Assembly: GCA_008632985.1 (NCBI GenBank)
Contig: QPGO01000069.1
Span: forward strand, 418,442-438,441
Length of the DNA: 20,000 nucleotides
Direction of reading: 5' to 3'
From: Psammoneis japonica
Taxonomy: Eukaryota
This document shows, in pieces, positions 1 to 20,000 of the stretch. The position numbers were made by a program, and so were the translations under genes. The notes below the pieces were generated by a model. It did not search any database, was not told the origin of the DNA, and saw only the letters and a list, made by a program, of their open reading frames with translations. How positions within the stretch are numbered: the stretch's first letter is position 1; every line of letters begins with the position of its first letter.

Positions 1-2029
1 TCTGCACAAAGGGCATCAAATTGGTCATCCGGCGGATCATCTGCATCATCTGGCACCTCAACAGAATCATCCTCATCAAGAGACACGTCCGGGACAGACA
101 AAGCATTGACATCAAATGTGGCATGCTTGGGGTCTTCTTGATTCCGGTCCCATTTGTGGTGGATTGCAAGGATTTGCACAAGTGCAAAGTGAAGGACTGC
201 CCAGTTGACGAAGGAAGTCAGAAAGAGTTTCAACAATCTGAGCATCTGTGTGCTTCTTGAGCACACTTGTGGACTTCCATTCATCCCCAGTGGTGTGGGA
301 CAAGTGCTTGGAGCATTTGGTGTTCTTGATGAATGCAGTCATCTCTTGTGGATCATCTGATGTAGAGTCCGCATCAAAGACACAAGTGCACAACTGTGGA
401 AAATCATTGAAAACCATGTGGCAGTCCATCAATGACAGATTGCCTTGAGCAAGACAGGAATCTGCCAATCCAGCAGCTTCATGGTCAAAAGCTGGATGAT
501 TCTTGTGGACACTCTGCTTGAGAGCCTTGCTTCCATTGCCACAGCAGGAGGCAACAATCCGATGGTGCTTGCTGTTCTTGGGGAACATGTCTGACTTGGA
601 TGGAATCTTGTGGAGAGAACTCTGGGCTTCTTTGCAATGGACATGCACGCATTGATGTGAGTCATCATCCTTGCCGTTTCCAATCATGAAACCCTTCTCA
701 CCACCTTGATCCTTGGTGAAACACCACAAAGGGTGGACGCAGTGTCCTGAATTGAAAGAGTGGTGTTGGAAGTTTTGATGCCATGCCTGTGTCCCAGCAG
801 GAGAGTCATCATGACAGATGGGAGGTTCCCTGAACAACATTTTCTGATCAGGAGTTGAGCTCATGACATGAAGCATTCCATCATTGAGAATGATGTGATC
901 AGAAGCATCAACATGATGATGGAAACCATGGTCACAGTGGATGAGAAAACTCTTCAGGGCAGCCGCACCATGTTCCTTGCAGCCGCATTGTTCTCATGCA
1001 TCAGTGGGTGGAGTGTTGGGTTTGAAGAGACACTTCAATGTTGTGGATGATGTGGCACTTCCTGATGTCTTGGCAGTGGCAGTGGAAGGTGGAGCATGGC
1101 TCGACACAAACTTGTGGAGGGCTGTCGCCAAATCATTCACACTGACAGTCGCAGTTCCTGAACCAGTCCAGGATGAGGGTGCAGGCTGTTGCTTCTGCTG
1201 GTGGGGCCCAAGGGAAAACTCTTTCCAATCCTGATGATTCCATGTTGCATCTGGATCAACATGGATGTGTGAGCAGAGATGACAATGAATGAGGTCTGAT
1301 CATGACTTTCTGAAGGTTCATCTTGATCATGGATGACAGAGCTGCAGACATCAAACAAATTGCACAAGGCCTGTTGGGGTCTGCAATGCAGAACAGAGCT
1401 TGGTCCACAATCATTTTGATGGATTGCATGTCCGCAGGGTCCACCGTGCAAGGTGGAAACGCTTGATTGACAAGACAGTCTTGGAGCAAGTCTGCAACAC
1501 TCGTCTTGGGTCAAGCATGCTCTGGATTGTCAAAGAACGGGTCCAGATCAAATGTTGAATCCGCGTGGATCTCATTCAGGCATGCATGGAGATGTGGCAT
1601 CGTCGTGTGTGCTTGGAATTCACGCAACAGATCTCTGCAACAGACGCAGGAGCAGCCTTTGCAAGGTCGGGAGACGCCATGGTTTTACTTGGGGAAAACA
1701 TTTTTGGTCATGCACGTGCAGAAATCTGGCGTGTTTCTACGGTCGTGAAAAATGCGGGAAAACACGAAAAAATTTGTTTCAGGAACAAAGACGAGGCTTG
1801 CTCGATCGGCTCACAAAACAAATGAATCGAAACAGAAAGTGTGGCGCAGAGTTCTGTGACACAGCGCAAGGCCACAACCTGACAGAATGCCGAAGGTCAA
1901 TGACAATGGAGGTGTAAAAGACTCCCCAAGCACTGGGACTGTGACAACATGAGCACCAGCAGATGAGAAGTGAGAGGTCTGGTCATCATCCGTGCACATT
2001 CCATCCATCGTACGATGGACAGGCTGACA
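1..2029 (-). mobile_element. 5' part of a degenerate Ty1/Copia (diatom CoDi-like) LTR retrotransposon: LTR 2029-1880, PBS-like 1879-1868, leader, gag relic ~1680 to <1
   Basis: Minus-strand TGTCAG...CTGTCA unit (150 bp) immediately followed by GGTTGTGGCCTT. The same arrangement recurs at 13023-13285 and 13735-13939. The interrupted reading frame (EFQAHTTMPHLHACLNEIHAD, VADLLQDCLVN, GNGSKALKQSVHKNHPAF) is homologous to other relics in the window and resembles diatom Copia Gag (G.GY.AL..I...HP) once His/Cys are read as Tyr. Confidence 0.7.
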
Positions 2030-2102
2030 ACCCTCTGCTCTCTGCCGGCACTCTAGAGAGCAGATTGGCACCTCTCCCCTTGCAGCTTTGGCAGCACTGG
2101 TT

Positions 2103-2747
2103 AAACCAGGCCTGCGGGGAGCATTGACCACTTGTCTTTCTTTTTGTGGGTGTGGGTGTGTGCCGTTGCATGCTGCATTGCCTGTGCGCACGCAGGTGGC
2201 AGCGTGGCCACCACACCGGTGACGCGGATGACCGTTGTGTCTGATGTCTCATGCCATTTTTGGGGCTGCAGCGAGGTGCACGGACACTCTTTTTTTTCCA
2301 ATTTATCGCCACAATGGCGCATCGCACAAACTCACTTGTTGTTTGATGTGTTTTCCCAGTGTGACTGTCTCGTGCAGAATTCACGATTGATTGTCTTTGT
2401 TCACAACTGAGTGCATTTTTCAACATGCCACGCCGGCAATCCCAATTTTTGAGAACTTTCGAGCTCTCCTGAAAAACCGTGCCACGCACCCGTCGCAGGG
2501 AATTTGTCGATTTTTTAGGATGTCCCCACGACCTCTCATGTCCTCAATGATCATTCTGCGAATCCAAAGAATTCATCTGTGCCAGACAACCCATGCCGTT
2601 CCAAAATCTGAGGGACACACTTTCAAATTCAGATGGACTGCCCGACTGCCCGACTGCCCGACTGCCCGACTGCCTGACTGTCCGACTGCCCGACTGCCGG
2701 ACCGACACGAAAAAGTCTGCAATCACCAACCACTGAGTGGTCAATGA
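2103..2747 (-). mobile_element. Non-autonomous Helentron/HINE (DINE-1-like) element, copy A
   Basis: 11-bp subterminal inverted repeats CATTGACCACT (2122-2132) / AGTGGTCAATG (2736-2746), terminal hairpin ACCACTGAGTGGT, 8-bp tandem array CCCGACTG near that end, and minus-strand end GGCCTGGTTT. Near-identical to 2763-3419. Confidence 0.6.
2641..2696. repeat. 8-bp tandem repeat (CCCGACTG)x7; counterpart x6 at 3321-3368
   Basis: Read directly from the sequence; a few variant units (CCTGACTG, TCCGACTG, CCCGACCC). Confidence 0.95.
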
Positions 2748-2762
2748 AATGTGTGCTTGTGG

Positions 2763-3419
2763 AAACCAGGCCTGCGGGGAGCATTGACCACTTGTCTTTC
2801 TTTGTGGGTGTGGGTGCATGTGTGCCGTTGCATGCTGCATCAGGGCCCTGCTGCCGGGGCCGGCATTGTGGCGGCTGAGTGGCATGGCCACCGCACCGGT
2901 GACGCGGATGACCGTCACATTTGATGTCTCATGCCATTTTTGGGGCTGCAGCGAGGTGCACGGACACTCTTTTTTTCCAATTTATCGCCACAATGGCGCA
3001 TCGCACAAACTCACTTATTGTTCGATGTGTTTTCCCCAATGTGACTTTTTCGTGTAGAATTCACGATAAATTGTCTTTGCATGTAACTGAGTGCATTTTT
3101 GAACATGCCACGCCGGCAATCCCAATTTTTCAGAACTTTCGAGCTCTCCTGAAAAACCGTGCCACGTGCCCGTCGTAGGGAATTTATCGATTTTTTAGGA
3201 TGTCCCCACAACCTCTCATGTCCTCAATGATAATTCCAAGAATCCGAAGAATTCATCTGCACTAAACAACCCACACCCTTTCAAAATCCAAGGGACACAC
3301 TTTCAAATTCAGACGGACAACCCGACTGCCCGACTGCCCGACTGCCCGACCCCCCGACTGCCCGACTGCCGGACCGACACGAAAAAGTCTGCAATCACCA
3401 ACCACTGAGTGGTCAATGA
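2763..3419 (-). mobile_element. Non-autonomous Helentron/HINE (DINE-1-like) element, copy B
   Basis: Direct repeat of 2103-2747 after a 15-bp spacer. Same subTIRs (2782-2792 / 3408-3418), hairpin and CCCGACTG array (3321-3368). Confidence 0.6.
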
Positions 3420-3610
3420 TCTGCACCTGTTTCTGCGGACCCCTTCATACCCTGCACTACATCTGAACCAAATTCAGTAGACCAGATTTTCGATGACTAG
3501 GAAATTTGTGCCAAGATGAAACGGGAAACTCTAACCTAAAGTACAAGCATGAATTTGCTGAAATCTGAGAGAATGCATTATGTTTAGTTGTGAAGTGTGG
3601 TTGATCTAGT

Positions 3611-6321
3611 TCATAGCTTCTCAATCTCAGCCTTGAGGTTCTCGGGGGACATGCCGAGCTCCTTCATGACAATGTCACCTGGGGCAGAGAATCCGAAGCG
3701 ATCAACTCCGATGACATTGTCGGCGTACTTGTACCAGAGTCCAGAGACACCGGCTTCCATTGCAATGCGCTTGGTGCACGAAGCAGGGAGGACGCTTTCC
3801 TTGTAGTCATCGCTCTGGCGTTCGTAAAGCTCCATGCAAGGCATAGAAACAACACGGGCACCTGGCATGTCAGCGGTGGCCTTAAGTGCGTGCTGAACCT
3901 CAGATCCAGTGGCAATAACAATAACGTCCAAGTCTTCAGTCTCCTTCTTGGCAATGTATGCTCCCTTGAGGGTTCCCTCACGACGTTCAGCAACGGACAA
4001 GTCGTTGTTCTGGTCGACATTTTGACGAGAGAAGATCAAGGCAGTGGGTCCCTCCTTGCGGGTGACAGAGTGAACCATGGCGGCAACAGTTTCCTCGGCA
4101 TCAGCAGGGCGCATGACATCAACATTAGGGAAAACACGGAGACCACTGACGGTCTCAACAGGCTGGTGGGTAGGACCATCCTCACCAACACCAATAGAGT
4201 CGTGGGTAAGGATCCAGGACACACGGTTGAGCTCAGCAAGACCAGCAACACGGACAGTAGGACGGAAGTAGTCAACAAACACAAGGAAGGTAGATCCAGA
4301 GATCTTGAAAAGACCGTGGTAAGCAAATCCGTTCATGATGGAACCCATGGCGTGTTCGCGGATACCGAAGTAAAGGTTCTTTCCAGCGTAGCTCTTGTCG
4401 AAACCGGCGCCGAAGTTTCCTCCGTCTTCGATGTAGTTACGGGTGGAGCCATGAAGGTCGGCGGATCCAGAAACGTAATACGGGACGGCCTTGGAAATTT
4501 CCTGAATGGCCTTGTTCTGAGAGACACGGGTGGCCTCGGCATCAGTGCCCATGTCGGGGATGGACTTGATCATTTCCTCGGCAGAGGCAGTCTTGTCATT
4601 GATGGCATCGTCAAGCTGCGAGGCAAGGTCGGGGTTGGCCTCCTTCCAAGCGGAGAAGGTCTTTTGCCATTCATCGTAGGCAGCCTCGTTCTTGGCCTGT
4701 ACGTCCTTGAAAAAGTCGCGGGTTCCTTCCGAAACATACCACTTTTCTCCATCAGGAAGACCAATGTTCTTCTTGGCCTTGTCAACGTAAGGAACACCGG
4801 CTTCTCCGTGAGCAGCGTTGGTTCCCTCGGTTTCTTCCATGCCCTTACCAATGATAGTGTTGCACTTGATGAACTTGGGCTTGCCGTTGTCGCTGGCCTT
4901 GGCGGAAGCGATGGTTTCCTCAACAGTGGCAAGATCGTGACCGTCAATATCATAGACTTCCCATCCGTACGCCTCGTAACGCTTGAGAATATCCTCGGAC
5001 TGAGTGTACTCCGCCATCTTATCAAGGGTGACCTCGTTGGCGTCGTAGAGAACAATGAGGTTATCAAGCTTCTCGTGGGCCGCAAAGGCAGCAGCCTCGG
5101 CGGAGACACCCTCTTGGAAGCAACCATCTCCAGCTAGAGCAAAGATGTGGTGGTCAAAGATCTTGTGGTCATCGGTGTTGTAAACTGCCTCGGCCATCTT
5201 CTCGGAAGCGGCGAAACCAACCGCGTTGGCAACACCCTGTCCAAGGGGTCCCGTAGTGCACTCAATTCCGGGTGTGTTGTGTTCAGAGTTGGGGAACTCG
5301 GGGTGACCAGGGGTCATGGAGTGATGTTGACGGAAGTTCTTCAACTCCTCCATGGGGAGGTCGTATCCGGCAAGGTTGAGCCATGAGTAGATGAACATGG
5401 AGCCATGTCCGGCAGAAAGGATGAAACGATCACGGTTAATCCATTCGGGGTCCTTGGCATTGTAGCTCATCTACATTTTGTGAAGAGAATTCGGAAAAAG
5501 AACAAAGTCGTGAGCGCAAAAAATCGAAACGACATCATATCACTTGCGGTCGCCAGCCCACGTCACTGATCGCAGTAGAAAGTGTACAGATTTCTACGCG
5601 CGACAAATGGACTCAGTACCTGACCACGTATGTGTTTTCAAAAAAGGAACGCAATGATGTCTCACGTACCTGGGAGCCGTAAAGCGAGGCACCAATCTCA
5701 GCAGCACCAAGAGGAAGACCCATGTGTCCAGAGTGAGCTGCAGCAATGGAGTCCATAGCAAGACCACGTGCTTCGTTGGCAGCAGTGGCGAGAGCGGCCA
5801 AAGTGTCCGTCTCGGTGGCAGTGCTCATCTTGAGAACATTGCTCTGCATGACACCAAGAAAGATCGAGAGTATACCAACAAGCATAATGGACCAAGTAAA
5901 TGCATTAATATTGGAGAGTATCATTGTTTCATTGTCAAGAGTGCGTACGAGAGAGAAAACGGGGAGAGAAAAAATGTGAGTTAGTCGTAGGATTCTGAGA
6001 AACTTGCTCCATGCCACACAAAATCCGACAAATCACATGCAAGACAAAATAGCTGAATTTCTCCAAGTCAACAAGCGATCATTGCAGCCCTCGCTGTGAC
6101 GAAGCAAGTCGACAAAGACTGAACGTCGTATTTCCTTTGCAGGCGCGAACCAGAAGGTGTTTTCCCGACACAGTTACGGGGAACAAGCGCATATTGTGCA
6201 TATCTTTCTTGTTACGTACCTGGCGGACTGCAAAGCGAGCAGATTTAAGAGGAGTTCCGGCAAATCCGTTGACACCGGCGGACAAAGCCGTCGCGGCGAT
6301 AGCAAGCATGGAGAACTTCAT
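3611..6321 (-). CDS. TKL: Plastid-targeted transketolase, 3 exons (6321-6220, 5843-5670, 5470-3611), ~711 aa
   Basis: Transketolase motifs [40 protein letters not shown] (ThDP-binding), [24 protein letters not shown]. Two phase-0 introns with GTACGT donors (6219, 5669) and CAG/TAG acceptors (5844, 5471) join in frame. N-terminus [30 protein letters not shown] is a signal peptide plus Phe-initiated transit peptide, typical of diatom/heterokont plastid proteins. Confidence 0.95.
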
Positions 6322-6664
6322 CGTGAAAGAAAGCGTGGTTAGAGAACCCACAAGCTTTTTATGAGAAGGCATCAATCAAAGCCGAATGGTTGTTGTGCAG
6401 ATCAACAGCGCGACACGTACGTACGCGTCGTCGACGTTGGATCTTTATTTTTTTCGTGGCGGGAAAAAGCGTGGCGAAGTGCCACCTTTCCTTCACTCTT
6501 TCCCATTGAATACTAATTTTTTCGAAACAGATGGAGGAATCGTGGCCAAGATTCAATCTTTTCAAAAAACATTCCAAATCACAAGTCCGAAGCCAAGATT
6601 CCTTCTCAAAAGATTCCTGTGGTGACGGGCAGACCGCCCGAAAATGCTGAACTAAGATAGATAG

Positions 6665-7281
6665 ACAGACAGTCGCGACGACCAGACTGTTGGCAGGGGT
6701 TGGCCACGACATGTCATTCGTTCATTCAAGCAAAGCGGAAGACTTCACAGTTGAACAATGCAGAGCAGATTGAGACTGGTGAGGCCCGAACACAAAACGA
6801 AGACGAGGCTGTCCCCAAAATCATCTGTGGGAGGAGGCAAAATGCTGCTTTGCATTGGTTTTTGCTTCCAGCATGCAGGCTGTGGCTGCAAGCCAATGTG
6901 CGCCAGGCTGCCCATGTTGTGACTCCTCCTCCTCACTGTTTCAAGCTGGAGGCAGGCCAGAGTTTTGCAACCGTGCCAGGTTCTTGTAGGAGCAAAACGC
7001 TGCGTTGTTGTGCCGCACAGTGCATGCTGGCAAGGACAGAGCAGCTGCTTTCTCTCTTTTCTCTGGAGGAGAAAGCTGGCCAAGAACAGCTCTTTGCCCA
7101 GACTCCTCTGTTCTTCGTTGGCATCTCTTGACCCTTCAACAACTGGGAAGTGAAGAGAGTTCTTGCTCAATGCCACTGGCTGCCCTCCATCTCCTGGGCA
7201 CTGCTGCCATGCTGTTTGTCAAATTTCGTGTCTCTCAAATTTCTCTGAACAGATGGACCTGCCTTGTTGTTTGTGGTTTGA
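6665..7281. other. TpA-depleted island of unknown origin in the TKL/ASF1 divergent intergenic region
   Basis: Only one TA (~6987) seen in ~620 bp, with TA common on both sides. No termini or family motif confidently recognised. Confidence 0.6.
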
Positions 7282-7679
7282 CTAATCAAACGTCTTTCAA
7301 AAGAGTTTATTTTTATCTTTTGATGAGTGCCGTTGCGTTGTGTTGGGTTTTCTCTGCCGTGTGTCTTCGAGCTCCGAAAAGTAAACCTCGCGCGCCAGGA
7401 ATGAAGAGAAAGCAAGCCCGTAGAATTTGTACCTGGGTGCTACCACCCGGTGATCGAGCTGTCGCGTTGCGTTTCGCCGCATTTTCTGCTTCAGCTTCAG
7501 CGACGACACAACACCCTTGATCGGTTTGTGCTTTGAGAGTTCGACACAGCGTTTGCTATTCTTATCGCTATACCAGCCGTTTCTCAGCAGGATCATCTCT
7601 ACGTTTATCAGTCATTTTTGCTTCGAGTTATTCCGAAATTAGCAATTAGAACTGCATCATACAACATAAATCTTTCACA

Positions 7680-8484
7680 ATGGCGCTCGTCAATGTATGC
7701 AACATGGTAAGTCACCGCAAACGCTCTGCCCGATTCGTAAGGAGGCAATTGCCGCACTCAATGTCTTTTTCTTGTATATAACGCACCAGGTGGTTCTCGA
7801 TAATCCAACAAACTTTAGCAATCCGTTTCAATTCGAAATTACCTTTGAATGCTTACAAGAGCTCGAAGACGGTACGTGAGCAATCTCTGTATGAGACTTG
7901 AAGCTAGCTCCTTATCTATCACCCCATAAACCTCACAGCTTTTCCCGTTATTTATTATAGATTTGGAATGGAAGGTGCTGTATGTTGGCTCAGCAGAGTC
8001 ATTTACACACGATCAAGTTCTGGATGAAGTCATGGTGGGTCCGGTGCCGGTGGGCCTCAACAAGTTTGTCTTGCAGGCGGACGCCCCCGATCCACAATCG
8101 ATTCCTCGTGAAAGTCTCTTGGGGGTCACGGTGGTCTTGGTTACTTGCAGCTACCGAGAACAGGAGTTTGTTCGGATTGGATACTATGTCAACAATGAAT
8201 ACGAGGGACACGATGCAACTCAGGAAGACGCTCCTCCACTCCCAGAGACGCTCGATATGAACAAGGTGTTGAGAACAATCTTGGCGGATAAGCCACGTGT
8301 CACGAGATTCCCCATTACGTGGAATAGCGACGGCAGACAGGCTCAGCAGGAAGCACAAGGCGATGAAAACATGACGTCTCCGGCCAAGGTTGCTGATGCG
8401 AATACTCATGCAGCTTCTGAAGATATGGATATTGGCACAGGTATGCATGTGGTTACACCCATGGATACCGCCATGCAAATGTAA
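7680..8484 (+). CDS. ASF1: Histone H3-H4 chaperone ASF1, 3 exons (7680-7706, 7790-7871, 7961-8484), ~210 aa
   Basis: Spliced product MALVNVCNM-VVLDNPTNFSNPFQFEITFECLQELED-DLEWKVLYVGSAES..HDQVLDEVMVGPVPVG..KFVLQADAPD..GVTVVLVTCSY..QEFVRIGYYVNNEY..KPRVTRFPITW matches the ASF1 fold. Canonical GTAAGT/GTACGT donors and CAG/TAG acceptors keep frame. Confidence 0.95.
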
Positions 8485-10376: not shown

Positions 10377-10780
10377 GGCGGACCGTCGGCTTATTTTTTT
10401 CGCACGTCTTTCCGGGTTTTCAGCATTTTTGACGGGTCGCGACAGAAAATAACACGACAAAAGCACGAGCGACAATGATGATGTTCGCGACGAGCGGTGA
10501 GTTGCAAAGTATCACCTCACGAGGGACACTCATTGGTTTTATTATCATGATGTGGTGCAGATTGATTCACATGCTTTCGTCCCTCGTGCCACTGGGCCAA
10601 TTTTGAGAGACAGCGCAATGGCCGTCATCGTCGTGCTTCGATCGCGGAGCATGGCTGTTCTCGTTTTTCGAGGGCGATCGAACAATTCTTGTATTTAAAA
10701 TTAACAAATGTAAATAAACGCATCCAAACACAATGCCAATTTTAGGATCAAATGCTGAAAAAATATGTCGGCGGTCCCCC
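10377..10780. mobile_element. 404-bp MITE with ~23-bp imperfect TIRs and TTAA target-site duplication (Kolobok-like GG..CC termini)
   Basis: TTAA(10373-10376) GGCGGACCGTCGGCTTATTTTTT ... AAAAAATATGTCGGCGGTCCCCC TTAA(10781-10784); 19/23 TIR match. Internal inverted pair CACGAGGGAC / GTCCCTCGTG. Confidence 0.75.
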
Positions 10781-11010
10781 TTAAACGCTGGGGCCCTGCT
10801 TTGTTGAGGTTGGAGTCCTGTGCTGTCAAAAACATGAATCGCGCCCGCCCACATGCATCGCGAGGTTGGATGCAGCTCTCTGACTCAAGTCACATGAAAC
10901 ACAACCCTTGGAAATGCTTCGCCACCTTCCTCATGCCAGCTTGCAACTCCTTTTCTGAACAAGCCAGAGGCCTGCTGACAGACATCCGAGATGGGGAGTG
11001 CACTCCCTTG

Positions 11011-11520
11011 TGTCGGACAGACTGGCACAGACAGCACAGAGAGATCCGATGATCTCTCTCTGCTCACTTTCTTTCTCATCTGGTGCACAATCATCATCTG
11101 TCCTAGATGTCCGTTGGATCATCCCGACACCGCCAGTCCGCAAGGTTGTGAGCAGCAGTGCGCTGTTTGTCTTCCTCAACACAGCTGCGCTGCAACGTTC
11201 ACTGTGTGATTTGGCGACGTTTCTCCGTTGAAATCGTCATCTTTGTCACAGCCATTTTTCTCACTCGATTTGTGATCATCACGACCACCGTAGACCACAC
11301 ACCAGTGTTCTGCGCGGGATTTTGATTTTTTTCCCGCGCAACCATGGTGCCGACTGAGCAAACTTCTGTCGATTTGACCAAGATCAAGTCGACACAGGTC
11401 GAATTCAAACCGCAAAATCACTTGCCTGATGCCCATCATTGCCTGAATGCACTTCATTCAGATGCGACACCTGCTCCTGAAGATCTTCTGGATGGTCTTC
11501 AATCTTGTTCATTCACCCAT
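11011..11520 (+). mobile_element. Truncated Copia relic: LTR ~11011-11142, PBS 11144-11153, leader, gag start at 11344
   Basis: Begins TGTCGGACAGACTG and is similar to the reverse complement of the 13747-13939 LTR. Followed by GGTTGTGAGC (cf. half-tRNAiMet PBS GGTTATGAGC). The ORF EFKPQNHLPDAHHCLNALHSD aligns with EFQAHTTMPHLHACLNEIHAD of the 1-2029 element. Confidence 0.65.
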
Positions 11521-12149
11521 GCCAACCTCCCCAACTCAGCCCCGCCAACCCTTCTCCTGCGCTCAAGCCGCCAAGCAACCTTCCCAAGACACCCATTCTG
11601 AAACCACCTTTTCTCTCTTTGCTGTGTCTTGGCACCCTCCTCTGCCCTCCTGACTCTCCTCACCTGCCCAGAAGTGCTTCTTCCCACCCTGCCGAGACAT
11701 TGACACCAACACTGATGCAGAAGCTCTGTGCCGCACCTCTTTTCACACCACCTCTTGGTTGGAAGGGGGTGCTGGGTGAGGTGGAGGTGCCAGAGGGCTC
11801 CATTTCTGGAGGGTGGACCTGAGGAGTTGGGGCTGTGATTGGAGCAAATGGCTTCTCTTGCAGCAGGGCAACCTGCTCCAGGGAGTGACAGGTGACATGG
11901 CATTGAGCACGTGCAGCAAAGGTGTGTCAACAGCATGGCAGTCATGTTGGCAGTGAACAAGATCCATGCTTTCAGAGGGGGTTGTGTTGTCAGGACCTGG
12001 CCCACCTCCTCTGGGACCATCTTGTCATGGCCCACAAGCACCAAAGCATTCTTTGAAATGTCCTTCTTGACTCCTTCTTTGAGCAACACAATCTTTGCCC
12101 TTGTTGATGCCATCAAAAAATGCTGAGATTTGTCTGTGCAACTCCTGCC

Positions 12150-12850
12150 TCAATGCCCACATTGCCAACAAGCACCATTGCCCCCACACCTCTGCCAGCC
12201 TTTGACTCATGTCTTCTGGCCACCCTTCAAAAAAAAATGCCTGGCTGGACCTCTTCCCTCCAGTGGCCTGAAGCCCTCACTCTCACACCTTTCCCTTTTT
12301 TGAGCCTCCCTCTGGCACAAGCTGTCCTCATCCTCCTGCCTCCAAGCTTGTCACACCCTCCACCCTCTCATCAGCATTGACACCTCTGCCCCCTTTTGGA
12401 CAATGACTCCCCTCCCCTTGGCAAACCTCTTCAGCCCCTTGTTGGAAACTCCTTTTTCTTTTCAAGTCCCTTGTTCTTTGCCCCCAACCCAAGACATCTG
12501 ACCAGCCACACTTGTTCTCTGCCCTCATCTCCAAGTGCCTTCCCTTTTTTGAAACAGCCCAGTTTGCTCTTTGGATGACTCCTCTCAAGTCTCAAGCAGA
12601 GCCTCCCCCACCACCCCTTCTGATGACCCACCCAATTTGATGCCTCTTTGCCAGCATCCCAACCAGCACCATGACCACCATCTTCAATGGCCACCCTTCC
12701 TTCAGCATGAAGGTTTTGTCCAAGGTTGCCCCCCTGGCCCCACTTTCTTGAGCCTTGTCCTCATGTGTGTGCTCACCCCACTTGACCAAGAACTGCATGC
12801 CAGTGCTTCTTCCCTCCCCACTCCTCCCCAGATCCAGCACACCAGCCATT
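12150..12850 (+). mobile_element. CRE-like non-LTR retrotransposon relic, reverse transcriptase N-half
   Basis: PLGKPLQPLVG (~12410-12450; cf. RPI..G..LRRL) and QHEGFVQGCPPGPTFLSLVL (12703-12762; RT motif G..QGCPLSP). Strongly C/T-rich sense strand. Boundaries approximate. Confidence 0.6.
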
Positions 12851-12879
12851 GGAGTGCAGATCACAGACAGAAAATGGAA

Positions 12880-13285
12880 GGTGTCATTGTTCTGCAGGCT
12901 GAAAAAATGGTCGGGAGACAAAGAAAAATCCTTTTGGGAACAAAAAATGATGTTGGCTTGATTGGATCACAAAATGATGGAGTCAAAAAGAGAGCACATC
13001 ACAGAGTTCAGCAACACAGCTCAAGGCCACAACCTGAAAGAGTGCTGAAGGGCAAAGAGAATGTGGTGACATGACAGGCTCCCCAAATGCTGGGGCTGTG
13101 GCGGTGGTGCAAGCACCAGCAGAAGAGAATGAGAGGAGGACAGCAATGTGGCAGACTCCATGAGCACCAGGGCTGTGACAACATGAGCACCATCAGAAGA
13201 GAATGAGAGGTGGATCTCAGAGAGATTTGCTCATCAGTCCAAAAGGGTGGTCTGGTCATCATCCATGTTCAGTCTGTCCATGGTG
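12880..13285 (-). mobile_element. Copia LTR (partial, ~13285-13035) + PBS-like (13034-13023) + leader fragment
   Basis: Clear nucleotide similarity to 1770-2005 (CAGAGTTC..ACACAGC.CAAGGCCACAACCTGA, CTGTGACAACATGAGCACCA, GGTCTGGTCATCATCC). Confidence 0.7.
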
Positions 13286-13289
13286 TGAA

Positions 13290-13939
13290 GATTGCTTTCT
13301 GGAAAAGATTTGCAACCAGCAGCTCTTCTGCAGGGTCTTTGGTCTCTGGTGGGCTCACATGATTGAGGGCATGTTCTTGCAAGAGATCAGCCACAGCATC
13401 TTATGATTTTGCACGTTTGGCATCACAAAAAAAAGTTGAGCCCAACGGTTCTTGAGCCACCACAAAGGCAGCACAAGTGCTCAGAAGCCCCACTGCAGTG
13501 AGGACACAGTTGGAACACTGTGCTGATCTCCACAAGGGAGTCAACGACAGTCTTTTTGAGGGTCAGATGTGCCACGGTGGAGGGCAAAAAATGCACACAC
13601 ACCACAAAACAATTTTGTTGACAATGCTGGGAAATGTCAGCTGCAGAAACAAAAAATGGGCTGGCTTGATTGGCTCACAAGCAAAACAAGCCATGGTGGA
13701 ATTTTCAACACAGAAAAGAGCACAAACTGCTCACAAGGCCACAACCAGTCAGAACAGCAACAGCCAGCTGAGCTGACAAGCACAAGAGTCCTCTCTGTAA
13801 ACTGGCAACAGCAACAACACATGCACTGGTGAGAAAGAGTGAGAAGAGCAGATCTCAGAGAGATCTCACTCATCTGTCTGAAGGGTCTGGCTGTCATCCA
13901 TGTGCAGTCTGACCATGTGCAATGGTCAGTCTGCTGACA
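13290..13939 (-). mobile_element. Copia relic: LTR 13939-13747 (TGTCAG..CTGACT), PBS-like 13746-13735, leader and gag N-terminus
   Basis: Shares AAGGCCACAACC and LTR sequence with the other copies. Minus-strand VADLLQEHALNHVSPPETKDPAEE aligns with VADLLQDCLVNQAFPPCTVDPADM at ~1500-1425. Confidence 0.7.
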
Positions 13940-15200
13940 CTCTCACAATGACAGCCCAGCTTGCTGCCTCTCTGTTTCTCTTGGCAGCGCTGGCTGCCAT
14001 GACATTCCTGATGCTGCAGCTGTCCTGCCCTCTCTCCATCTCTCTTGCCCACTCTCTCCTCTTTGCCAAACAAGGCATCCACTCAACAGGTGCTGACCAA
14101 CACTTTTGCCTGCCTCCCAGCTGGTCTGCTGCCCTCTCCTCCTGGTCTGACCCGTGCCAATTTTTGATTCCTTGCCACTGCCCTCTTCCAACTTGACTCT
14201 CCCAGCTTTTCCTCTGTGTCTTCTTCTGTCTCCAATCACATCCTCCACAGTCTTCCTCAACAAACAACCCAACTTTGCTGTCATCAGCACAGTGCCCTTC
14301 TCCTGCTCCTGTGCCATCCTGACCTCCAACTGGCCCTCTCTTCCCATTTCTTTTTTCCTTGCTAACTTGTGCCTCCATTCCCTCTCACAAGCCCATCCAA
14401 GTGACCATCTCTCATCCTCGTCCCATGTCTCCCTCCTCCTCTTCCTCTGCAAGCTCCACCCCCCTGCTGTCCTCCCTCCAACCTCTGACACACCTGCCTT
14501 GTTGCCCCTGTGGACAGCACGGCTCAGAGATCCCTTTGGTGGCCATGCGCTCACTTGCTCCAAGATGCGTGCAAGGGCCCTCTCTCCAGTGGCGTCTTTG
14601 ACAAAATCTGTGATGTCATTGAAAACTGCGGTCCTCTCAGCAGCATTTGTCACTCTTGTCATCTCATGTCCTTCTCAAACTGCTGGCTGGTCATCCCAAT
14701 CCCTGACTGCCATCTCAAGTGACCTGCCAACATTGAAGCACAGCTTGCGCCAGGCTCAATGTGGCCTCCCTGTGCTCTGTGCTCCCTCCATCCACCACTT
14801 CCTTGCTTTCAATGTCATGGTCCCTCCAGCTCCTCCCCATCCTGCACTTGGTTGCCTGCTCCTTCCAGCTCACTTGCCAAGGCTTGCCTCAGCTGCACTT
14901 GTGACAACCTTCTGGGGTGCAGCGCCCCTTCCAACAGCAGCTCTTTTGTCATCATTGCAGTCAACCAATCCAGCCTTTTTCTTCTCCCCTTCACTCTTGA
15001 TCACTGGGGTGGAATGGGCTGCCATTTCCACACCCTCTTCTTTGGCCACTCACCCAACAACTCTTCCTCTGTCCCACCCCTGCATCCCAAGCTCCCCTGG
15101 AACAACCAGTCCAACTTCTCTCATTCTCATGCTTCATTTTTTTCATCCCACAAATCTTCTCTTGCTCCTTTTGCCAGTCAACCTCCTTGTCCAAGCCACC
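13940..15200 (+). mobile_element. CRE-like non-LTR retrotransposon relic, C-half: RT thumb, CCHC finger, restriction-like endonuclease
   Basis: In order across frameshifts: VSLGSAG (cf. LP...GGLG, ~13975), CPCG..DPFGGHALTCSK (14503-14564), DKICDV (cf. H..IRD), K*PANI (cf. RPADI, 14717-14734), LAFNVMV (cf. AFDVTV, ~14805), PFTLDHWGGMG (14987-15019). Confidence 0.65.
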
Positions 15201-15944
15201 ATCACCTGGAAACAACTTCCCGCCAATTGTTTTGGCTCTGTCCATCATTCATCTGCCCCCCAGTCAATGGTCTGTTCAATTTCTTGGTGCCTCAACCTTG
15301 GCCTGGCTCTTTCCAACCACCTGCCAATCCTTTCTTTGCTTTGCTGCCCCCCTCTGCTTCCTTCCATCCATCTGTCTGCATCTCTGAGCCCAGCCTTGTT
15401 TTCCAAACCCAGTCACCACACACACTTGCACTGCCCCCCTGATCCTTTTGTGCTGCAATTTTCCCTTTGTTGCCACAAAACAACTTGGCCAAGTTGGAGC
15501 AGACCCTGATGGCTTCTGCAGCATTGCACAATTGAGTGGCAAGTCAATGCTTCCACACAGACATCTGCTTGTGTCAGTGCCTCCACATGCAAAATGTCAA
15601 GTGACTGTTGCATCCTGCAGCCTCATTGGAGCTCTTTTCAAATGAAAAGAAAGGCGCCATTGGTGCTGGGAGGCAGAACACAGCAGCGCACACTCTCAAG
15701 AAAAGAATGACAGGTGCAAAAACAGAGCAGAGGAAAGAAAAGCAACCACACAATGATGGCTGATTTGTCATCATCCATCCATCCATTTTCATCTTGTGGC
15801 AGAGAATTTGGATGTTGGATGTGAGCCCAATGAAAACTTCCATTGTCCAGATCATGATGGATTGGGGGGGGGGGGGGGATCTCTTGCTTGTTGCAGTGCT
15901 TTCATGTGTGCCAAACAACAGATTGTCAAAGGCTGGCTGTTGTG

Positions 15945-16190
15945 CCAAGTTGAATGCCATCTGCAATGCCACCCCACAGTGTCATGTTGAAATGCTGGCC
16001 ACCACCACATTGTGTTGAATGCCATCTGTGCAGTGTCATGTTGAATGCTGGCCATCATCATGTTGCATCAAACACCATCTGCAGTGTTTTGTGCTGTCAT
16101 GTTGAGTGTTGAATGCTGGCTGTCACATCACATCAAATGCCGTCCTGTGTGTTGCGTCAAATGCCAGCTGTTGCATCATGTCAAATGCAG
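15945..16190. repeat. Degenerate minisatellite with core (TG/CA/CG)T(TG/CA)AATGC
   Basis: Repeated TGTTGAATGC, CATCAAATGC, CGTCAAATGC and TGTCAAATGC units with variable spacers. Confidence 0.75.
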
Positions 16191-16415
16191 TTGATCAAGA
16201 TGCTTCAGAGCAGCAAAGTTCAGTTGACACATCAAAAAACAAAATTAGACAAACCAACAGCAACAGAGGCACAGGTGAAAAAGTTGTCAAAATCATTGCT
16301 GCCTGCTTCACTTTTCTTGCTGCATTCTGGAACCCTGGCCTTTTGAAAAAGTTGTGGGCTCTTGTTGGCATCATTTCTGCCAACACAAGCTCATGACCCC
16401 AGTCCCTTGCAGCAT

Positions 16416-17294
16416 CTAAATTGCGCTAATTCCACCTTGCATGAGCTTCCCACTGTTGCCCTCAATGAGGTCACAAACTCTGTTGGAGATGTGAACAGAT
16501 GCATTGTCTGCAACCACAGCCAAGCCTGGTTCATAAAGACAGCATTTCCAAAGTGCAGGAACCACTTTTTCTTCCACACGAGCCTTGAATCTGGCCATGT
16601 CCACTGTTCCACATTCTGTGTCTTTGTTGTTGGGATGATTGCGCACATGCTCCACCATCTTGCAAGATTCTTTCACAAACCCAGCATGTCATCAGAGGCA
16701 ATTGGGGGTTGCACCACTTGTGGAAATCTTTCTCAAAATGCAAATCAACCACAGGTGGATTGTCCAGTTCCTCCCACCCTCCAGCAGGCACATTTTGTTT
16801 TGGCTGTTTCATCAAGAAATGCAGCTGTTGTGGGTTTTGGTGGGAACACATCCAGCCATCTTTGATGCCACTGCTTTTCAGCTTCACACCTCTGTTGGGC
16901 ACAGACTGCAGCCTTCTACAAGCTGTGGCCAAGTCAAAACAGTTGGCACCATGTGTCACTTGGGCTCCATGTTTTGCCATGTCTCTCCTTTCTGTTGCCA
17001 GCTGCATCTCATCAAGGTGCAAATGGGGCATCTCTCTTTGATGGCATGGAGCACATCATGATTGTCAGCTTCAGAAAATGAACAAGCAGCTCTTGTTGTG
17101 ACATCATGCCATCTTTTCCAGCTTCTTGCTCTGTGATGAGTTTCAGCTTTCATCTCACCAGGCTGGAGCAGATGAAGCCACTTCCAAAAGGTTTTGCATG
17201 GGGTGCTCTTCATCCAAGAGCCATCTGTTTCCTGCCAATCATCTTTGTTGAATGTTTGCACTTTGTTCCCATCATTCTTGCCAGCACAGCTCAA
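16416..17294 (-). mobile_element. IS630/Tc1-mariner-type (DDE_3) transposase relic, frameshifted and 3'-truncated
   Basis: In order: PHLHLDEMQ (cf. P.LYLDE.Q, ~17030), FLDETAK (first catalytic D, ~16810), GFVKESC, GTVDMARFKARVEEKVVPAL, VVADNASVH (second D, ~16505), RVCDLIE. The PYSPDLNPIE segment is absent. Confidence 0.75.
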
Positions 17295-18257
17295 AGACTT
17301 GCCACCTGGCTAATCTGTTGTTGTTTCAACGTGTGCCTTTGGGATTTTCTTGTCATCATGCTGAACTCCACCATGGCTTCATGAGGCTGGAGGACACAAA
17401 CAAGCAAAGCAGTGCACTCCAGGTTTCACAGACCCCCCTGAATTGCATTGATTCTTTCTGTGCCCCCAAAATGGTTTTTGCTTCTTTCTTCTTGCCACAA
17501 AAAGAAGCCAGAGCAACCGCGATGCAGGAAGCTGCATCAAAAAAAAAAGTGCCATTGTTTGCATGGTGCATGACCACAACAAAAGGAGCACAGATTGTCA
17601 TGACAACAATGCTTGCCATGACAGTGCAGCATTCAGACACTCTTCTCAGTGCAACAAACAAATGATGTGAGCCACAAAAGCCAGTGGATGAAGCCAAATC
17701 AACAAAGCACAAACAACATGGCCAATGGCATGTGGTCAAAGCCCACAATTGTGTGGTGTGCAAAATGACTTTTTGTTGTGTGATGACACAACAATGCAAC
17801 AATCAGGCCTTTCTCAATGCAGTGAACAAACAATGCAGGCCATGAAAGCCAACAGATGAAGCTGAGTCAATGAAGCACAAACAACATCGTGGGGCTGCTG
17901 ACAGATGCAAAAACACGCAACATCAGTGGAAGTGGCTCTTTGAGTGCTTCTCAATGAGCCCACAATCAATTTTTGAAAAAAAAGGCAAAAAAGCAGATTC
18001 TTGCATTGATTTCTGATTCAATGATGCCTGGCTGAATTTCAAAAGAGGTCAAATGGGGACAAAAGTGTGACAGCATCTCAACAAGTGCCACTGTGTGGCA
18101 CAGCTGCATTGAAAAAACTCACATTTTGCTTCTGCACATGCAAGATTTCATGCTTGGGGCAAAGTGTGCAGAGTGCTGGAGGGGCAAAAGTTGCAAGCTC
18201 AGAGTGGGGTTAATGGCAAAGAACAGAGACAATGGCAACAAATGCACGTGCACACAC

Positions 18258-18395
18258 GTGGTGCCACAAGGGCATGTTTGGTTGGAGGGTGATGCCCCGT
18301 TGTGCTCAACAGATTCCTGTCATTGTGGTCTGCCCAGCTCATTTGCAAACTTGCTTTGAGGTTGTTTGGGCTTTTGTTTGTGGCCTCTGGGGTGA
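18258..18395 (+). pseudogene. Fragment of mitochondrial inner-membrane peptidase IMP1/IMP2 (S26) C-terminus
   Basis: VVPQGHVWLEGDAPLCSTDSCHCG..LL*GCLGFCLWPLG versus family consensus VP.GHVWLEGDN...S.DSR.YGP....L.GR...R.WP; internal stop. Confidence 0.75.
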
Positions 18396-18779
18396 AGTCT
18401 GGACATGCATGGCTCCTCCAGTCTGTTTCTTCAATGAGAACAACCTGTGCTGCTGCTGTCGCCAGAACAAATGCTCTGAGACAGATGATGCAAGCTTCAC
18501 AGCTGACCTCACTCTGAATGGCCGCGGTCCAAAGTCAATGAATGCACTCTGTTTGTGCTTGACTGCCAGCCTGGCAAAGGCAAAAAGACACAGACCTGGT
18601 TTAAAGTTCTGTCACACCATTGACTGGCATGTTCAACATGGGCCAACCCACACTTCTGGCACACTGACATGCAGCAGAAGGGGAAAGGATTGGCCAGAAC
18701 TGGCATCACCTGATGGCAACACCTTTCAGAAATGACTGACAATGGGGTGGGCACCACAAATTGCAAAGTGCGTCACCTC

Positions 18780-19870
18780 CTTGATTGTGCTCCATTTGAG
18801 ACAACGCTTGCATGCAGAAACCCAGCTCTGCATTTTAGCCACACAGAGTGGGTGGGGTGTTTTCCTCTGCTGAGTCCAAAAGCAACTCTTGATCCTCTGC
18901 AAAACGGTTTTGACACCTGTTGCACACAGCCATGGATTCAGCCTCAGGAGCAAGACAATGATGTTGAGAAGTCTTTCTTGAGTCAACATCACAACCATGA
19001 ACTTGTTTGTTGTGTGACTGCCACATGCTGTGTAAATTGTGGGGAGCACAAAGCACTGTTGGGTGGCACCAGATGTTTAACAGGTGCCTGCTCAAGTTCT
19101 GGAACACTTTCCAAACCACTCACCTTCATGAAACTGGAGCCCACAACAAGCACCAAGCTCAAGAGGAGAACAAACCCCCTCCTGATTGAGTGCTCTAAGT
19201 TGGGCACTTCATTTGGAAATTGTGATGGGAGGTGCCATTTCATCATGGGTCCAAGCTTCAGGTGCAAAGAAGAGAAAATCTTCTGGAGAGGATGTGTGTG
19301 GTGTCAAGTTTGTTGCCATGCTTGTGAAGCCCTTGAGGGAACTTCCCATGCTGAGGCTCATCCGAGGGACACTTGACAGCGTGGTCACAGTCTTCCATGG
19401 GTGCTCACAAGACAAGCATCAGTGCCATCAGGCAGGATTGCACCTGCAAAGAACAATCTGTTTGTGGAAGAAGCAGACACAAGTGTCATCTGTTCTGACA
19501 ATGAACCAAGCTGGCGTGAGCGACCGTCCAGTCAATGAGAGCTGAGTCAGATGAGTGTTGCCAGCTGCACTCACACATGCACTCCAACAAGGGAGAAGCA
19601 ATGGCAGCACATTGCTTGGGGGTGCTTGAGCCTGGCAGAAACAATGCCATCTGATGACAAAAGTCAAGCTTGACAGCAAGGAAAGGGAGTTGCAACAGGC
19701 ATGTCATGAGAATGTCACCCATGAAGCTGATTGGCCAATCCATCAACTCCAACATTGACCCAAGCATTGAGGGGCAACAAGTCTACCAGGGATGTGCAAT
19801 TTTGATGACTTGTGAACCAAGACACTGGTGAGCCAACCATGAGGAGGAAGAATCCAAGTGAGAAACAATG
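18780..19870 (-). mobile_element. 3' part of an RNase H-containing non-LTR retrotransposon ORF2 (Ambal-like), degenerate
   Basis: In order: WFTSHQ...LPLNAWVNVGVDGLA (RNase H C-terminus, 19819-19730), CLSC..P.EDCDHAVKCP (CCHC knuckle, ~19420-19366), MWQSHNKQVHG (cf. W..RN...HG, 19027-18994). Boundaries approximate. Confidence 0.6.
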
Positions 19871-20000
19871 GCACACAACAGCTGGCAAACTTTGTTGACA
19901 ACACCCCAGTCTGAAGATGGGACATGTGCGCTGACAGGATTTGAACAGGATTTGGGGTGCGCGCGAAATGTCGCGCGCTGTTTGTTTGCCGCGCACAGTT

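Follow-up and report, generated by a model that had tools for sequence, protein, structure and literature searches.

The locus

The window, i.e., the whole 20-kb stretch of DNA from which all results presented here derive, contains a transketolase gene and, divergently oriented to it, an ASF1 gene. Two neighbouring copies of a repeat, A and B, lie just past the 3' end of transketolase. The features are (o/e, observed over expected):

1..2102, unstranded: left flank, repeat-rich and depleted; 6 TA (o/e 0.04), CG o/e 0.37, TG+CA 1.74
2103..2747, unstranded: copy A of a dispersed repeat of ~650 nt; 2 TA (o/e 0.05), 36 CG (o/e 0.83), TG+CA o/e 1.59
2122..2132, unstranded: 11-nt word CATTGACCACT in A, with an inverted copy at 2736-2746
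2179..2201, unstranded: hypervariable segment of A, present in a short form; B counterpart 2841-2881
2636..2702, unstranded: (GACTGCCC)n microsatellite within A; B counterpart 3321-3374
2748..2762, unstranded: spacer of 15 nt between A and B, flanks compared by eye
2763..3419, unstranded: copy B of the same ~650-nt repeat; 10 TA (o/e 0.26), 37 CG (o/e 0.87), TG+CA o/e 1.43
3420..3610, unstranded: stretch from B to transketolase with ordinary TA; 10 TA, o/e 0.60
3611..6348, minus strand: transketolase gene; exons 3611-5470, 5670-5843 and 6220-6348+
5471-5669 and 5844-6219, minus strand: transketolase introns, GT..AG; TA o/e 0.54 and 0.59, CG kept
6663..7282, unstranded: depleted single-copy island separating transketolase from the divergent ASF1 gene; 1 TA (o/e 0.03), CG o/e 0.38
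10400..11140, unstranded: another multi-copy repeat, bordering the gene block on its right; copies elsewhere have TA where the window has CA or TG
11341..20000, unstranded: depleted block of 8.7 kb, mostly single-copy by depth; 16 TA (o/e 0.03)

The transketolase gene is represented by a spliced contig of 2175 nt in run X2, and an ESM Atlas search of the protein returned 'transketolase' and nothing further. X2 is RNA-like, as its spliced contigs indicate, and next to no coverage of the twins is present in it; nothing is concluded from this about their transcription. When 39 of the 85 listed open reading frames were searched against Pfam, the only results were the N-terminal exon of transketolase, ASF1 and a sub-threshold Bap31. 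The 31 non-genic frames among those searched gave no match, and in 11341..20000 no Pfam family was recognised among them.

The twin repeats

The twins are adjacent members of a multi-copy, dispersed, non-coding repeat, and B ends 191 nt from the transketolase stop codon. Within the window a self-BLAST of copy A finds A and B as the only matches. Beyond it the family is large: summed contig depth is 5200-9300 compared with ~57 for single-copy DNA, depth not being equivalent to copy number, and 327 contigs can be placed at two positions each. The left flank reaches a summed depth of 700-2870 on the same scale. One X1 contig, covering 3391-8777, bridges the end of B and the unique gene region. 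The 3' end of the element is marked by 17 X1 contigs which part from the window past 2749; set from A, B and contig divergence, the element ends are approximate.

The sole feature reminiscent of terminal inverted repeats is the CATTGACCACT pair, which is subterminal and is also present in B (2782-2792 and 3408-3418). With regard to the MITE, SINE and LTR classes of transposon, a tRNA scan yielded no tRNA genes, Rfam no families and Pfam no matching reading frames. In the hypervariable segment a consensus of seven contigs from other copies resembles the long form of B (by eye, with a loose end behind 2196); at two positions with TG or CA in B it carries CG. An exact scan of metagenome contigs with a conserved 27-nt word of the element gave no match, nor did BLAST of 1-3419, 10006-11400 and 11341-20000 against 80 related metagenome loci.

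A tandem duplication of equal age is contradicted by the 15-nt spacer, on account of which the copies are not strictly head to tail and in which a comparison by eye reveals no clear resemblance to the 15 nt preceding A, and by the dispersed nature of the family, evident from the 17 diverging contigs and from depth. Because the family is multi-copy and dispersed, A and B need not share one age; instead of having arisen by tandem duplication, they may have inserted at different times.

Depletion of TA and CG outside the genes

The composition of the window is divided into compartments. In non-genic DNA TA o/e is 0.00-0.09 and CG o/e 0.00-0.38; computed over whole non-genic stretches, the values are 0.03-0.06 for TA, 0.12-0.76 for CG and 1.57-1.77 for TG+CA. 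Depletion covers positions 1-2001 and 11340-20000, the latter being 13 consecutive bins of 667 nt, with a TG+CA o/e of 1.6-2.0; the block 11341..20000 contains 64 CG (o/e 0.12) at a TG+CA o/e of 1.77. The gene blocks have TA o/e values of 0.46-0.63 and CG values of 0.8-1.1, and the introns are normal. The switch from depleted to normal is step-like and tracks the transcription units, as seen at 6662/6663 and 7282/7283. Multi-copy repeats and single-copy stretches are depleted alike, and transcribed blocks are spared together with their introns.

Throughout the window the o/e of pyrimidine-purine steps is 0.90-1.03, which a conversion of TA and CG by transitions would predict. TA is nearly absent also from DNA in which CG o/e is still 0.76-0.87. 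These data support the view that the non-genic half of the window has been stripped of almost all its TA (and CG) by a rare TA-destroying mutation process. In related diatoms the picture is different. Fifteen loci of at least 4500 nt, out of 80 metagenome loci, have TA o/e values of 0.55-0.93, and none of these 15 contains a 500-nt window with a TA o/e <0.2. The depletion is thus lineage-specific and no general feature of diatoms.

A sequence-only reading of the window had proposed a gradient toward the gene, TA loss being lower near it or in the younger copy. The gradient is not supported in this form: it was drawn from two copies, and elsewhere the borders are step-like at transcription units. 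Within B retained and lost TAs show no positional trend (Mann-Whitney p=0.57).

Comparison of A and B

A is the more decayed and B the less decayed of the twin copies. Their alignment comprises 636 columns with 63 substitutions, 42 of them transitions; the dinucleotide table has 629 aligned dinucleotide columns. The same reading had named six sites with a TA unique to B, opposite TG or CA in A, and each of them is as described: B carries TA at 3016, 3055, 3084, 3176, 3185 and 3263, A carries TG at 2337 and 2505 and CA at 2375, 2404, 2496 and 2583. Correctly, too, it had listed two additional B-only TAs (3067 and 3231, where A reads TT and TC), found no TA private to A (0 reverse cases in the 629 columns), and pointed out sites at which TG in one twin is paired with CA in its counterpart. 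We count eight such doublets, at 2237, 2239, 2402, 2487, 2557, 2580, 2594 and 2609 in the coordinates of A. In its homologous core A has two TAs only, at 2304 and 2516, and each is kept in B, at 2983 and 3196. Another TA, at 2102/2103, spans the left edge of A and is outside the repeat.

Most CGs are retained in both copies, again as claimed: 31 of the 38 aligned CGs persist in both, five are lost in A only and two in B only. The six TA versus TG/CA sites and the eight TG/CA doublets together account for 22 of the 42 transitions. Five transitions outside pyrimidine-purine steps (2241, 2359, 2369, 2585, 2601) all read C or G in A and T or A in B. Plain C>T in B would account for them, and so would A>G in A next to a 5' A; a strictly TA-only process leaves them unexplained. 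Several differences at TA sites are transversions, with TT, TC or AA in one copy. Inspected by eye, TG and CA outcomes form no clear strand-specific runs along either copy. Two-base inversions and tandem-base mutation were set aside as an origin of the doublets after inspection by eye: TA is found there as a third state, and longer inverted words exist for some doublets only.

Other copies of the repeats

The window was also compared with the X1 contigs, of which the best-supported 40 of 899 difference rows were read; none of these 40 falls on the six named sites. X1 probably is the sample behind the window assembly and is, therefore, not independent. A third copy of the twin element (by eye) reads CA at 3016/2337, a position with TA in B and TG in A. 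It reads CA at 3046, where A has TG and B has TT, and CA at three positions which are TG in both A and B. Compared with B it has 16 differences in 40 nt, 15 of which are transitions.

The second repeat family (10527-11092) behaves similarly. In 10 of its 18 listed difference rows the window has CA or TG and the other copies TA; the reverse is seen in none of the 18. At 10568 and 11092 TA is present in every aligned contig (9 and 22, respectively). Among 19 listed differences in single-copy DNA 14 are transitions, all 14 in pyrimidine-purine steps, and TA is involved in six rows (five sites).

The ancestral dinucleotide and the direction of change

The 6:0 asymmetry of TA alone proves nothing; the TG/CA doublets are the real signal. 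When 42 random transitions were placed on A, a mean of 7.7 B-only TAs resulted, with P(≥6)=0.81. From a B-like starting sequence the mean was 1.24 and P(≥6)=0.00035. B-only TA in the absence of A-only TA thus gives no direction by itself, since random transitions on the TA-poor A yield as many, and as proof of direction the argument of the sequence-only reading is lost. The doublets are a different matter. Simulated from either start they had a mean of ~0.5 and a maximum of 5, and at least 8 were obtained in 0 of 20,000 runs.

The doublets had been ascribed to a palindromic ancestor, either TA or CG, hit on opposite strands. Of this pair TA is clearly favoured over CG. With TA as the hub generating the eight doublets and CG as a hub generating none, the log-likelihoods are -7.43 and -5.85, together -13.28. 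With the doublets assigned to the CG hub and none to TA they are -19.48 and -3.19, together -22.67. The TA hub is better by ~9.4 log-likelihood units because 31 of the 38 aligned CGs survive in both copies, compared with 2 of ~23 inferred TAs. The TA-hub fit is imperfect in that two TAs are retained in both copies where 0.72 are expected (deviance ~4.7). According to the fit the ancestor had ~23 TAs, of which roughly nine tenths are gone from A and about two thirds from B.

The proposed loss of TA by transition is, then, supported from four sides: the TA-hub doublets, the third copy, the second repeat family and the unchanged frequency of pyrimidine-purine steps. With a probability of roughly 0.7 we hold that the twins were degraded by a region-specific mutation of TA to TG or CA, alongside a slower decay of CG, and that the genes were spared. 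At the six named sites the direction from TA to TG or CA is what we infer from the copies themselves. B may be less decayed as the younger insertion or through a less exposed position. As the insertion ages possibly differ, the effects of age and position are inseparable for the twins.

Alternative explanations

The most serious competitor, although an unlikely one, is that the ancestor was TA-free like A and that B gained its TAs by ordinary or RIP-like C>T changes (CpA>TpA), the doublets being of other origin. The mean of 7.7 B-only TAs from random transitions on A is in its favour, as is the uniform polarity of the non-CG single transitions, 11 of 11 of which are C or G in A and T or A in B. 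If these are taken as C>T in B, the contexts are CpA 6, CpT 4 and CpC 1, and the context preference of RIP has a similar order. Diatom DNMT4 enzymes are presented as relatives of fungal RID in a study of diatoms (PMC9998398). Yet a gain in B leaves the eight doublets unexplained, and the two private TAs of B which differ from A by transversion do not fit. RIP raises TA and lowers CA/TG, whereas B has TA at 0.26 and TG+CA at 1.43 and all repeats of the window are TA-poor. At 10568 and 11092 TA is present in all other copies, which independent gains would not produce, and an equilibrium TA o/e of ~0.03 implies that loss far exceeds gain. Still less probable is an origin of the doublets from ancestral CG, i.e., deamination of methyl-CpG on opposite strands in a heavily methylated subset, with nothing special about TA. 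Decay of CG to TG/CA clearly is active (CG o/e 0.12 in 11341-20000), seven CG versus TG/CA differences separate A and B, and restoring CG at the doublets creates plausible CG clusters (by eye). But with 31 CGs kept in both copies and seven lost in one, ~0.16 discordant double losses are expected and eight are observed, and the likelihood is worse by the ~9.4 units given above. Moreover, a CG ancestor accounts neither for TA in B where two other copies read TG and CA nor for the near-absence of TA where CG o/e is 0.76-0.87.

That the pattern is an artefact we regard as very improbable. A modified TpA base might be misread in a strand-dependent manner, or the copies might be assembly mosaics of family members. 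The family is indeed multi-copy (depth 5200-9300 against ~57, 327 contigs with two placements), the A-B junction is inside a multi-copy repeat, and some differences between window and X1 are at TA sites. Misreading, however, would generate long blocks of only CA or only TG, and the two are finely mixed at 88-130 each per kb. X1 contigs of kilobase length match the window, from which they differ at 8 positions over 2063 nt and at 14 over 3788 nt of depleted DNA, and a mosaic assembly would still display TG/TA/CA variation across the family. Equally slim are the chances of selection, by which TA (and CG) would be purged from non-genic DNA as harmful, e.g., as targets of nucleases, transposases or binding proteins. 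Composition alone cannot tell selection from mutation bias, and a depletion as extreme and regional as this one is compatible with it. But introns and UTR-like DNA keep TA and apparently functionless single-copy and repeat DNA loses it; under constraint the reverse would be expected. In decaying repeat copies the losses of TA are independent, to TG or to CA, and in Bigelowiella natans the same mutational signature was measured directly (bioRxiv 10.64898/2026.01.13.699255).

A possible mechanism

A targeted loss of TA by transition, which we prefer, would operate as follows. A palindromic TA would become TG by an A>G change on one strand, or CA by the same change on the other. A and B would have been hit independently of each other, so that an ancestral TA would by now have turned into TG in one of them and into CA in its twin, or would be left in B only. 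In the same DNA a slower decay of CG to TG/CA, of the methyl-cytosine type, would proceed, and the two processes together would shift every pyrimidine-purine step of the non-genic DNA toward TG/CA, with transcribed gene blocks, introns included, escaping. By analogy, the likeliest chemistry would be an enzymatic deamination of adenine at TpA by an ADAT2/TadA-like enzyme; the alternative is a symmetric, miscoding base modification at TpA. Either chemistry might be aimed at silent, untranscribed chromatin, or its lesions might be repaired in transcribed DNA.

A further-reaching proposal, to which we give even odds, is that this diatom possesses a TpA-directed hypermutation system which acts on essentially all untranscribed DNA, outpaces methyl-CpG decay and exempts transcription units. 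If so, its targets would be repeat families, single-copy intergenic DNA and even the spacer between divergent genes, and together with methyl-CpG decay it would erase both palindromic pyrimidine-purine dinucleotides. The exemption of transcription units would point to targeting by chromatin state or to transcription-coupled lesion repair. The twin repeats would then constitute a natural time series for the rate of the process, and repeat families in general would serve as molecular clocks for it. The borders between genes and intergenic DNA would inform about the targeting rule, and the co-occurring loss of CG possibly is a link with DNA methylation. There are consequences for annotation as well: TA-free DNA loses the stop codons TAA and TAG, which gives spurious long open reading frames. 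The dating of repeats and mutation models for the lineage are also affected.

Comparison with known systems

In fungi RIP degrades repeats by context-specific transitions; CpA is converted to TpA, which results in an excess of TpA and a deficit of CpA/TpG. The present case resembles RIP in that context-specific transitions hit repeated or foreign DNA, genes are spared and linked duplicates record the process. It differs in that TA is destroyed, CA/TG is enriched and single-copy DNA is also affected. RIP was rejected on the composition of the twins (TA o/e 0.05 in A and 0.26 in B, TG+CA 1.59 and 1.43) and of all repeat-rich bins, which are TA-poor.

The decay of methyl-CpG in vertebrates, plants and diatom transposons is similar insofar as a palindromic dinucleotide turns into TG or CA on either strand, and in the window it affects the same compartments. 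Methylation of diatom transposons is reported in PMC9998398. Here, however, the target is TA, and in the twins CG is the slower one to go, with 31 of 38 CGs kept compared with ~2 of 23 TAs. As sole cause of the twin differences methyl-CpG decay was dismissed, the eight discordant double losses being far above its prediction. ADAR-type A-to-I hyperediting has a 5' U preference and acts on RNA, and ADAT2-type DNA editing is known in amphioxus and trypanosomes only, both as cited in bioRxiv 10.64898/2026.01.13.699255. With these enzymes the process would share an A>G outcome with preference for a 5' T/U neighbour. Should the five non-TA changes in A be A>G, each of them has A as its 5' neighbour, which ranks second.

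The closest parallel, and the sole relevant match of a literature search which found nothing on TpA depletion or hypermutation in diatoms, is the chlorarachniophyte Bigelowiella natans. The following is taken from the preprint (Mettrop et al., bioRxiv 10.64898/2026.01.13.699255). In mutation-accumulation lines two silent viral insertions acquired 231 mutations, of which 230 were A>G or T>C and fell on TpA, at ~6e-7 per site per generation, and adenine deamination at TpA of the ADAT2/TadA type was proposed. TpA-poor sequences of B. natans are enriched in reverse transcriptase and DDE endonuclease domains. The two cases share their products, TpA>TpG and the complementary TpA>CpA. In both, the changes are confined to certain regions next to DNA that mutates normally, and the long-term footprint is a clustered TpA depletion with enrichment of CpA+TpG. 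By this analogy the process in the window may be the same as the TpA-only hypermutation of B. natans. There are differences. De novo mutations were recorded there, whereas the present evidence comes from sequence comparison. The host here is a diatom, a stramenopile, and B. natans is a rhizarian. TA o/e is 0.00-0.09 over >10 kb here, compared with a Rho of 0.45 in an NCLDV region there. The affected DNA here consists of short non-coding repeats, single-copy intergenic DNA and the spacer of divergent genes, and viral genes are not recognisable in it. Here the loss of TA is accompanied by that of CG, and CpG is not mentioned in the text of the preprint. Finally, the changes there are nearly pure transitions, and some of those at TA sites here are transversions.

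A context-specific hypermutation from A:T to G:C goes against the common GC>AT bias; it has so far been documented in one preprint and one organism. A footprint in a diatom would mean that the process is not peculiar to one alga, and its presence in Stramenopila and Rhizaria would suggest an old, SAR-wide mechanism of genome defence or mutation. New in comparison with B. natans are the much deeper footprint, its extension to transposon-like repeats and plain intergenic DNA, and the sharp borders at transcription units.

Twin repeats beside a transketolase gene

The window carries two copies, A and B, of a ~650-nt sequence, which are 87% identical, separated by a 15-nt spacer and located beyond the 3' end of a transketolase gene, 191 nt from its stop codon.

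Genes and repeats
2103-2747, copy A, ~650-nt sequence, direct orientation
2763-3419, copy B, ~650-nt sequence, direct orientation
3600-5470, 5670-5843, 6220-6348, minus strand, transketolase exons (spliced 2175-nt X2 contig)
~7495-7705, 7960-8649, plus strand, exons of the ASF1 histone chaperone (Pfam E 5.6e-49; X2 contig)
9487-10092, plus strand, Bap31-like ORF (weak, sub-threshold Pfam match)
10400-11140, second multi-copy repeat (other copies from X1 contigs)

The transketolase ORF (3611-5470, minus strand) ends in TGA; the spliced contig defines two GT..AG introns of 199 and 376 nt. Its nearest relatives are diatom transketolases (best match 89% identity; Cylindrotheca, Odontella, Nitzschia and a Bacillariaceae MAG at 83-86%). 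The public sequencing runs X1, X2 and X3 stem from one sample. X1 is DNA-like and may be the window's own source; X2 is labelled 'DNA?' and behaves RNA-like.

Summed X1 contig depth across the twins is 5,220 and 9,310, sums which are not equal to copy number, against about 57 for single-copy DNA. From 2,466 X1 contigs aligned to the window, 327 match two places and 17 depart after 2749. Thus, the twins are members of a dispersed multi-copy family. Their only inverted-repeat-like feature is an 11-nt subterminal inverted word; a tRNA head, an Rfam match or a Pfam match was not found in the element. Each twin contains a (GACTGCCC)n microsatellite (2636-2702 and 3321-3374) with units reading TG always and CA never.

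Doublets, not TA asymmetry, carry the signal

The twins differ by 63 substitutions in 636 aligned columns, 42 being transitions. Across 629 aligned dinucleotide columns TA is present in both copies twice, in A against TG/CA in B never, and in B against TG/CA in A six times. All six sites of the sequence-only reading (B/A 3016/2337, 3055/2375, 3084/2404, 3176/2496, 3185/2505, 3263/2583) are correct, as is the absence of the reverse; its two further B-only TAs exist and differ from A via transversions. It had also described sites where one copy has TG and the other CA, of which we count eight (doublets), and CGs mostly kept in both copies: 31 are retained in both, five are missing in A only and two in B only.

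The 6:0 asymmetry had been taken as a sign of direction. This did not hold. A is rich in TG/CA (127) and has only two TA; consequently, 42 random transitions simulated on A yield a mean of 7.7 B-only TAs (P(>=6) = 0.81). Random transitions on B destroy a mean of 1.24 TAs (P(>=6) = 0.00035). The outcome depends on the starting copy; the asymmetry thus restates TA content (2 vs 10), gives no direction and is by itself non-diagnostic. A doublet requires two neighbouring transitions. About 0.5 are expected against eight observed, and none of 20,000 simulations reached eight from either copy (maximum recorded on A, five). It is the doublets that carry the signal.

A single transition converts either TA or CG into TG or into CA; doublets therefore indicate a palindromic ancestor struck on opposite strands. 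The sequence-only reading admitted either dinucleotide, of which TA fits and CG does not. With losses independent in each copy, 31 CGs kept in both and seven lost once predict about 0.16 discordant double losses, compared with eight seen. A TA ancestor is fitted with about 23 sites and losses of 0.91 in A and 0.65 in B, giving expected counts of 0.72/1.35/7.33/6.8 vs 2/0/6/8 observed. The TA ancestor reaches a combined log-likelihood of -13.28, the CG ancestor -22.67. The TA model is imperfect (deviance about 4.7); the two TAs shared by A and B may sit at slowly changing positions. At five transitions outside pyrimidine-purine (Y-R) steps, A always has C/G and B has T/A; C>T in B would explain these, and so would A>G in A following a 5' A.

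Hence TA would change to TG or CA by transition on either strand, independently in each copy. That the twins are losing TA by transition is the best-supported reading, with a probability of about 0.68; at the six sites we infer the direction. It draws chiefly on evidence initially ranked secondary.

Other repeat copies and single-copy differences

A third, diverged copy of the twin family was compared by eye with the twins over a 40-nt stretch (between 3015 and 2376). It reads CA at one site with TA in B and TG in A, at another with TG in A and TT in B, and at three more with TG in both twins; of the 16 changes that separate it from B, 15 are transitions. The simplest account of a site with all three states, TA, TG and CA, is that its ancestor was TA. 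Behind 2196, the consensus of seven contigs is similar to the long form that B has of a variable segment and contains CG in place of B's TG or CA; this is ordinary CpG decay in B.

Difference rows are the best-supported 40 of 899 across the window. Among the 18 listed for the second repeat, ten have CA/TG in the window and TA in other copies (10527, 10554, 10568, 10611, 10654, 10705, 10710, 10721, 10737, 11092) and none the reverse. TA is present in 9/9 aligned contigs at 10568 and in 22/22 at 11092. The second family thereby appears to give polarity to the loss of TA. Of 19 single-copy rows listed against X1, 14 are transitions, every one in a Y-R step, and six of these rows (5 sites) involve TA. 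At 9160-9161 the window has TA and an X1 contig CG, both positions differing; this matches hits on both palindrome strands and would allow TA to turn into CG.

TA and CG along the window

The window is sharply bimodal in observed/expected (o/e) TA, CG and TG+CA between non-genic and genic stretches.

Dinucleotide o/e (TA, CG, TG+CA)
1-2102, non-genic: 0.04, 0.37, 1.74
3611-5470, transketolase long exon: 0.46, 0.82, 1.18
6663-7282, island between divergent transketolase and ASF1: 0.03, 0.38, 1.57
7283-10800, ASF1 and Bap31-like block: 0.63, 1.09, 1.12
10801-11340, non-genic: 0.06, 0.76, 1.58
11341-20000, non-genic: 0.03, 0.12, 1.77

Total Y-R steps remain at 0.90-1.03 throughout, so TA and CG were turned into TG/CA via transitions. 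The series of TA/CG values, B 0.26/0.87, A 0.05/0.83, 10801-11340 0.06/0.76, island 0.03/0.38 and right block 0.03/0.12, shows that TA is lost first and CG later. The transketolase introns have TA of 0.54 and 0.59 (CG 1.0-1.5), similar to exons, so selection on coding sequence is unlikely to be responsible; unequal exposure to mutation would be a simpler explanation.

Neither a gradient toward the gene nor a younger age of B, as first proposed, is established by these data. Binned TA o/e does climb toward the gene (0.02, 0.00, 0.07, 0.14, 0.24, 0.49), but retained and lost sites within B show no trend (mean positions 3126 vs 3143, p=0.57) and the other depleted/normal borders are abrupt. The higher CG retention in B (single losses 2 vs 5) fits a younger insertion and a less exposed position alike.

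The single-copy island (620 nt) has one TA, at 6987, which is CA in an X1 contig. It adjoins the 5' ends of both genes; depletion thus extends to DNA expected to hold promoters. The right block (8.7 kb) is mostly single-copy by depth, with strong GC skews (-0.36 at 12001-13000, -0.41 at 14001-15000). Its long ORFs (maximum 451 aa, 14154-15509) have no Pfam match and probably exist because TAA and TAG stops are absent. It contains a 53-nt tandem repeat (two copies, 15977-16081). X1 and X2 contigs omit 2485, 147 and 94 nt at 15772-18258, 17194-17342 and 18316-18411, which could be deletion alleles, alternative haplotypes or spliced transcripts. Several X1 contigs link 1939-1969 to places near 13190-13884 with few letters between, suggesting another dispersed repeat common to both depleted flanks.

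Alternatives and known systems

Strand-dependent misreading of modified TpA predicts long all-CA or all-TG blocks; TG and CA are finely mixed instead. Kilobase X1 contigs match the depleted DNA with 8 differences in 2,063 nt and 14 in 3,788 nt. A general diatom trait is ruled out by related metagenome loci: the 15 examined, which reach 4,500 nt or more and come from 80 encoding transketolases at 80-89% identity, have TA o/e between 0.55 and 0.93, and none of their 500-nt windows is under 0.2. Fungal RIP leaves a footprint of TA gained and CA/TG lost. The window shows the opposite, TA lost and CA/TG gained, and RIP is rejected. Diatoms possess RID-related DNMT4 enzymes of unknown function (PMC9998398).

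For diatoms, we found no report of TpA depletion or hypermutation. The closest parallel is Bigelowiella natans, described in a preprint whose accessible portion mentions neither diatoms nor CpG (bioRxiv 10.64898/2026.01.13.699255). Its mutation-accumulation lines acquired 231 mutations in two silent viral insertions; all but one (230) were A>G or T>C, each of these at TpA, at ~6e-7 per site per generation. Its genome has clusters of windows poor in TpA and rich in CpA+TpG, and the enzyme suggested is an ADAT2-like adenine deaminase (same preprint). The window's signature matches this TpA hypermutation in a far more advanced state, and is probably a new instance, in a diatom, of a process reported so far in this one preprint.
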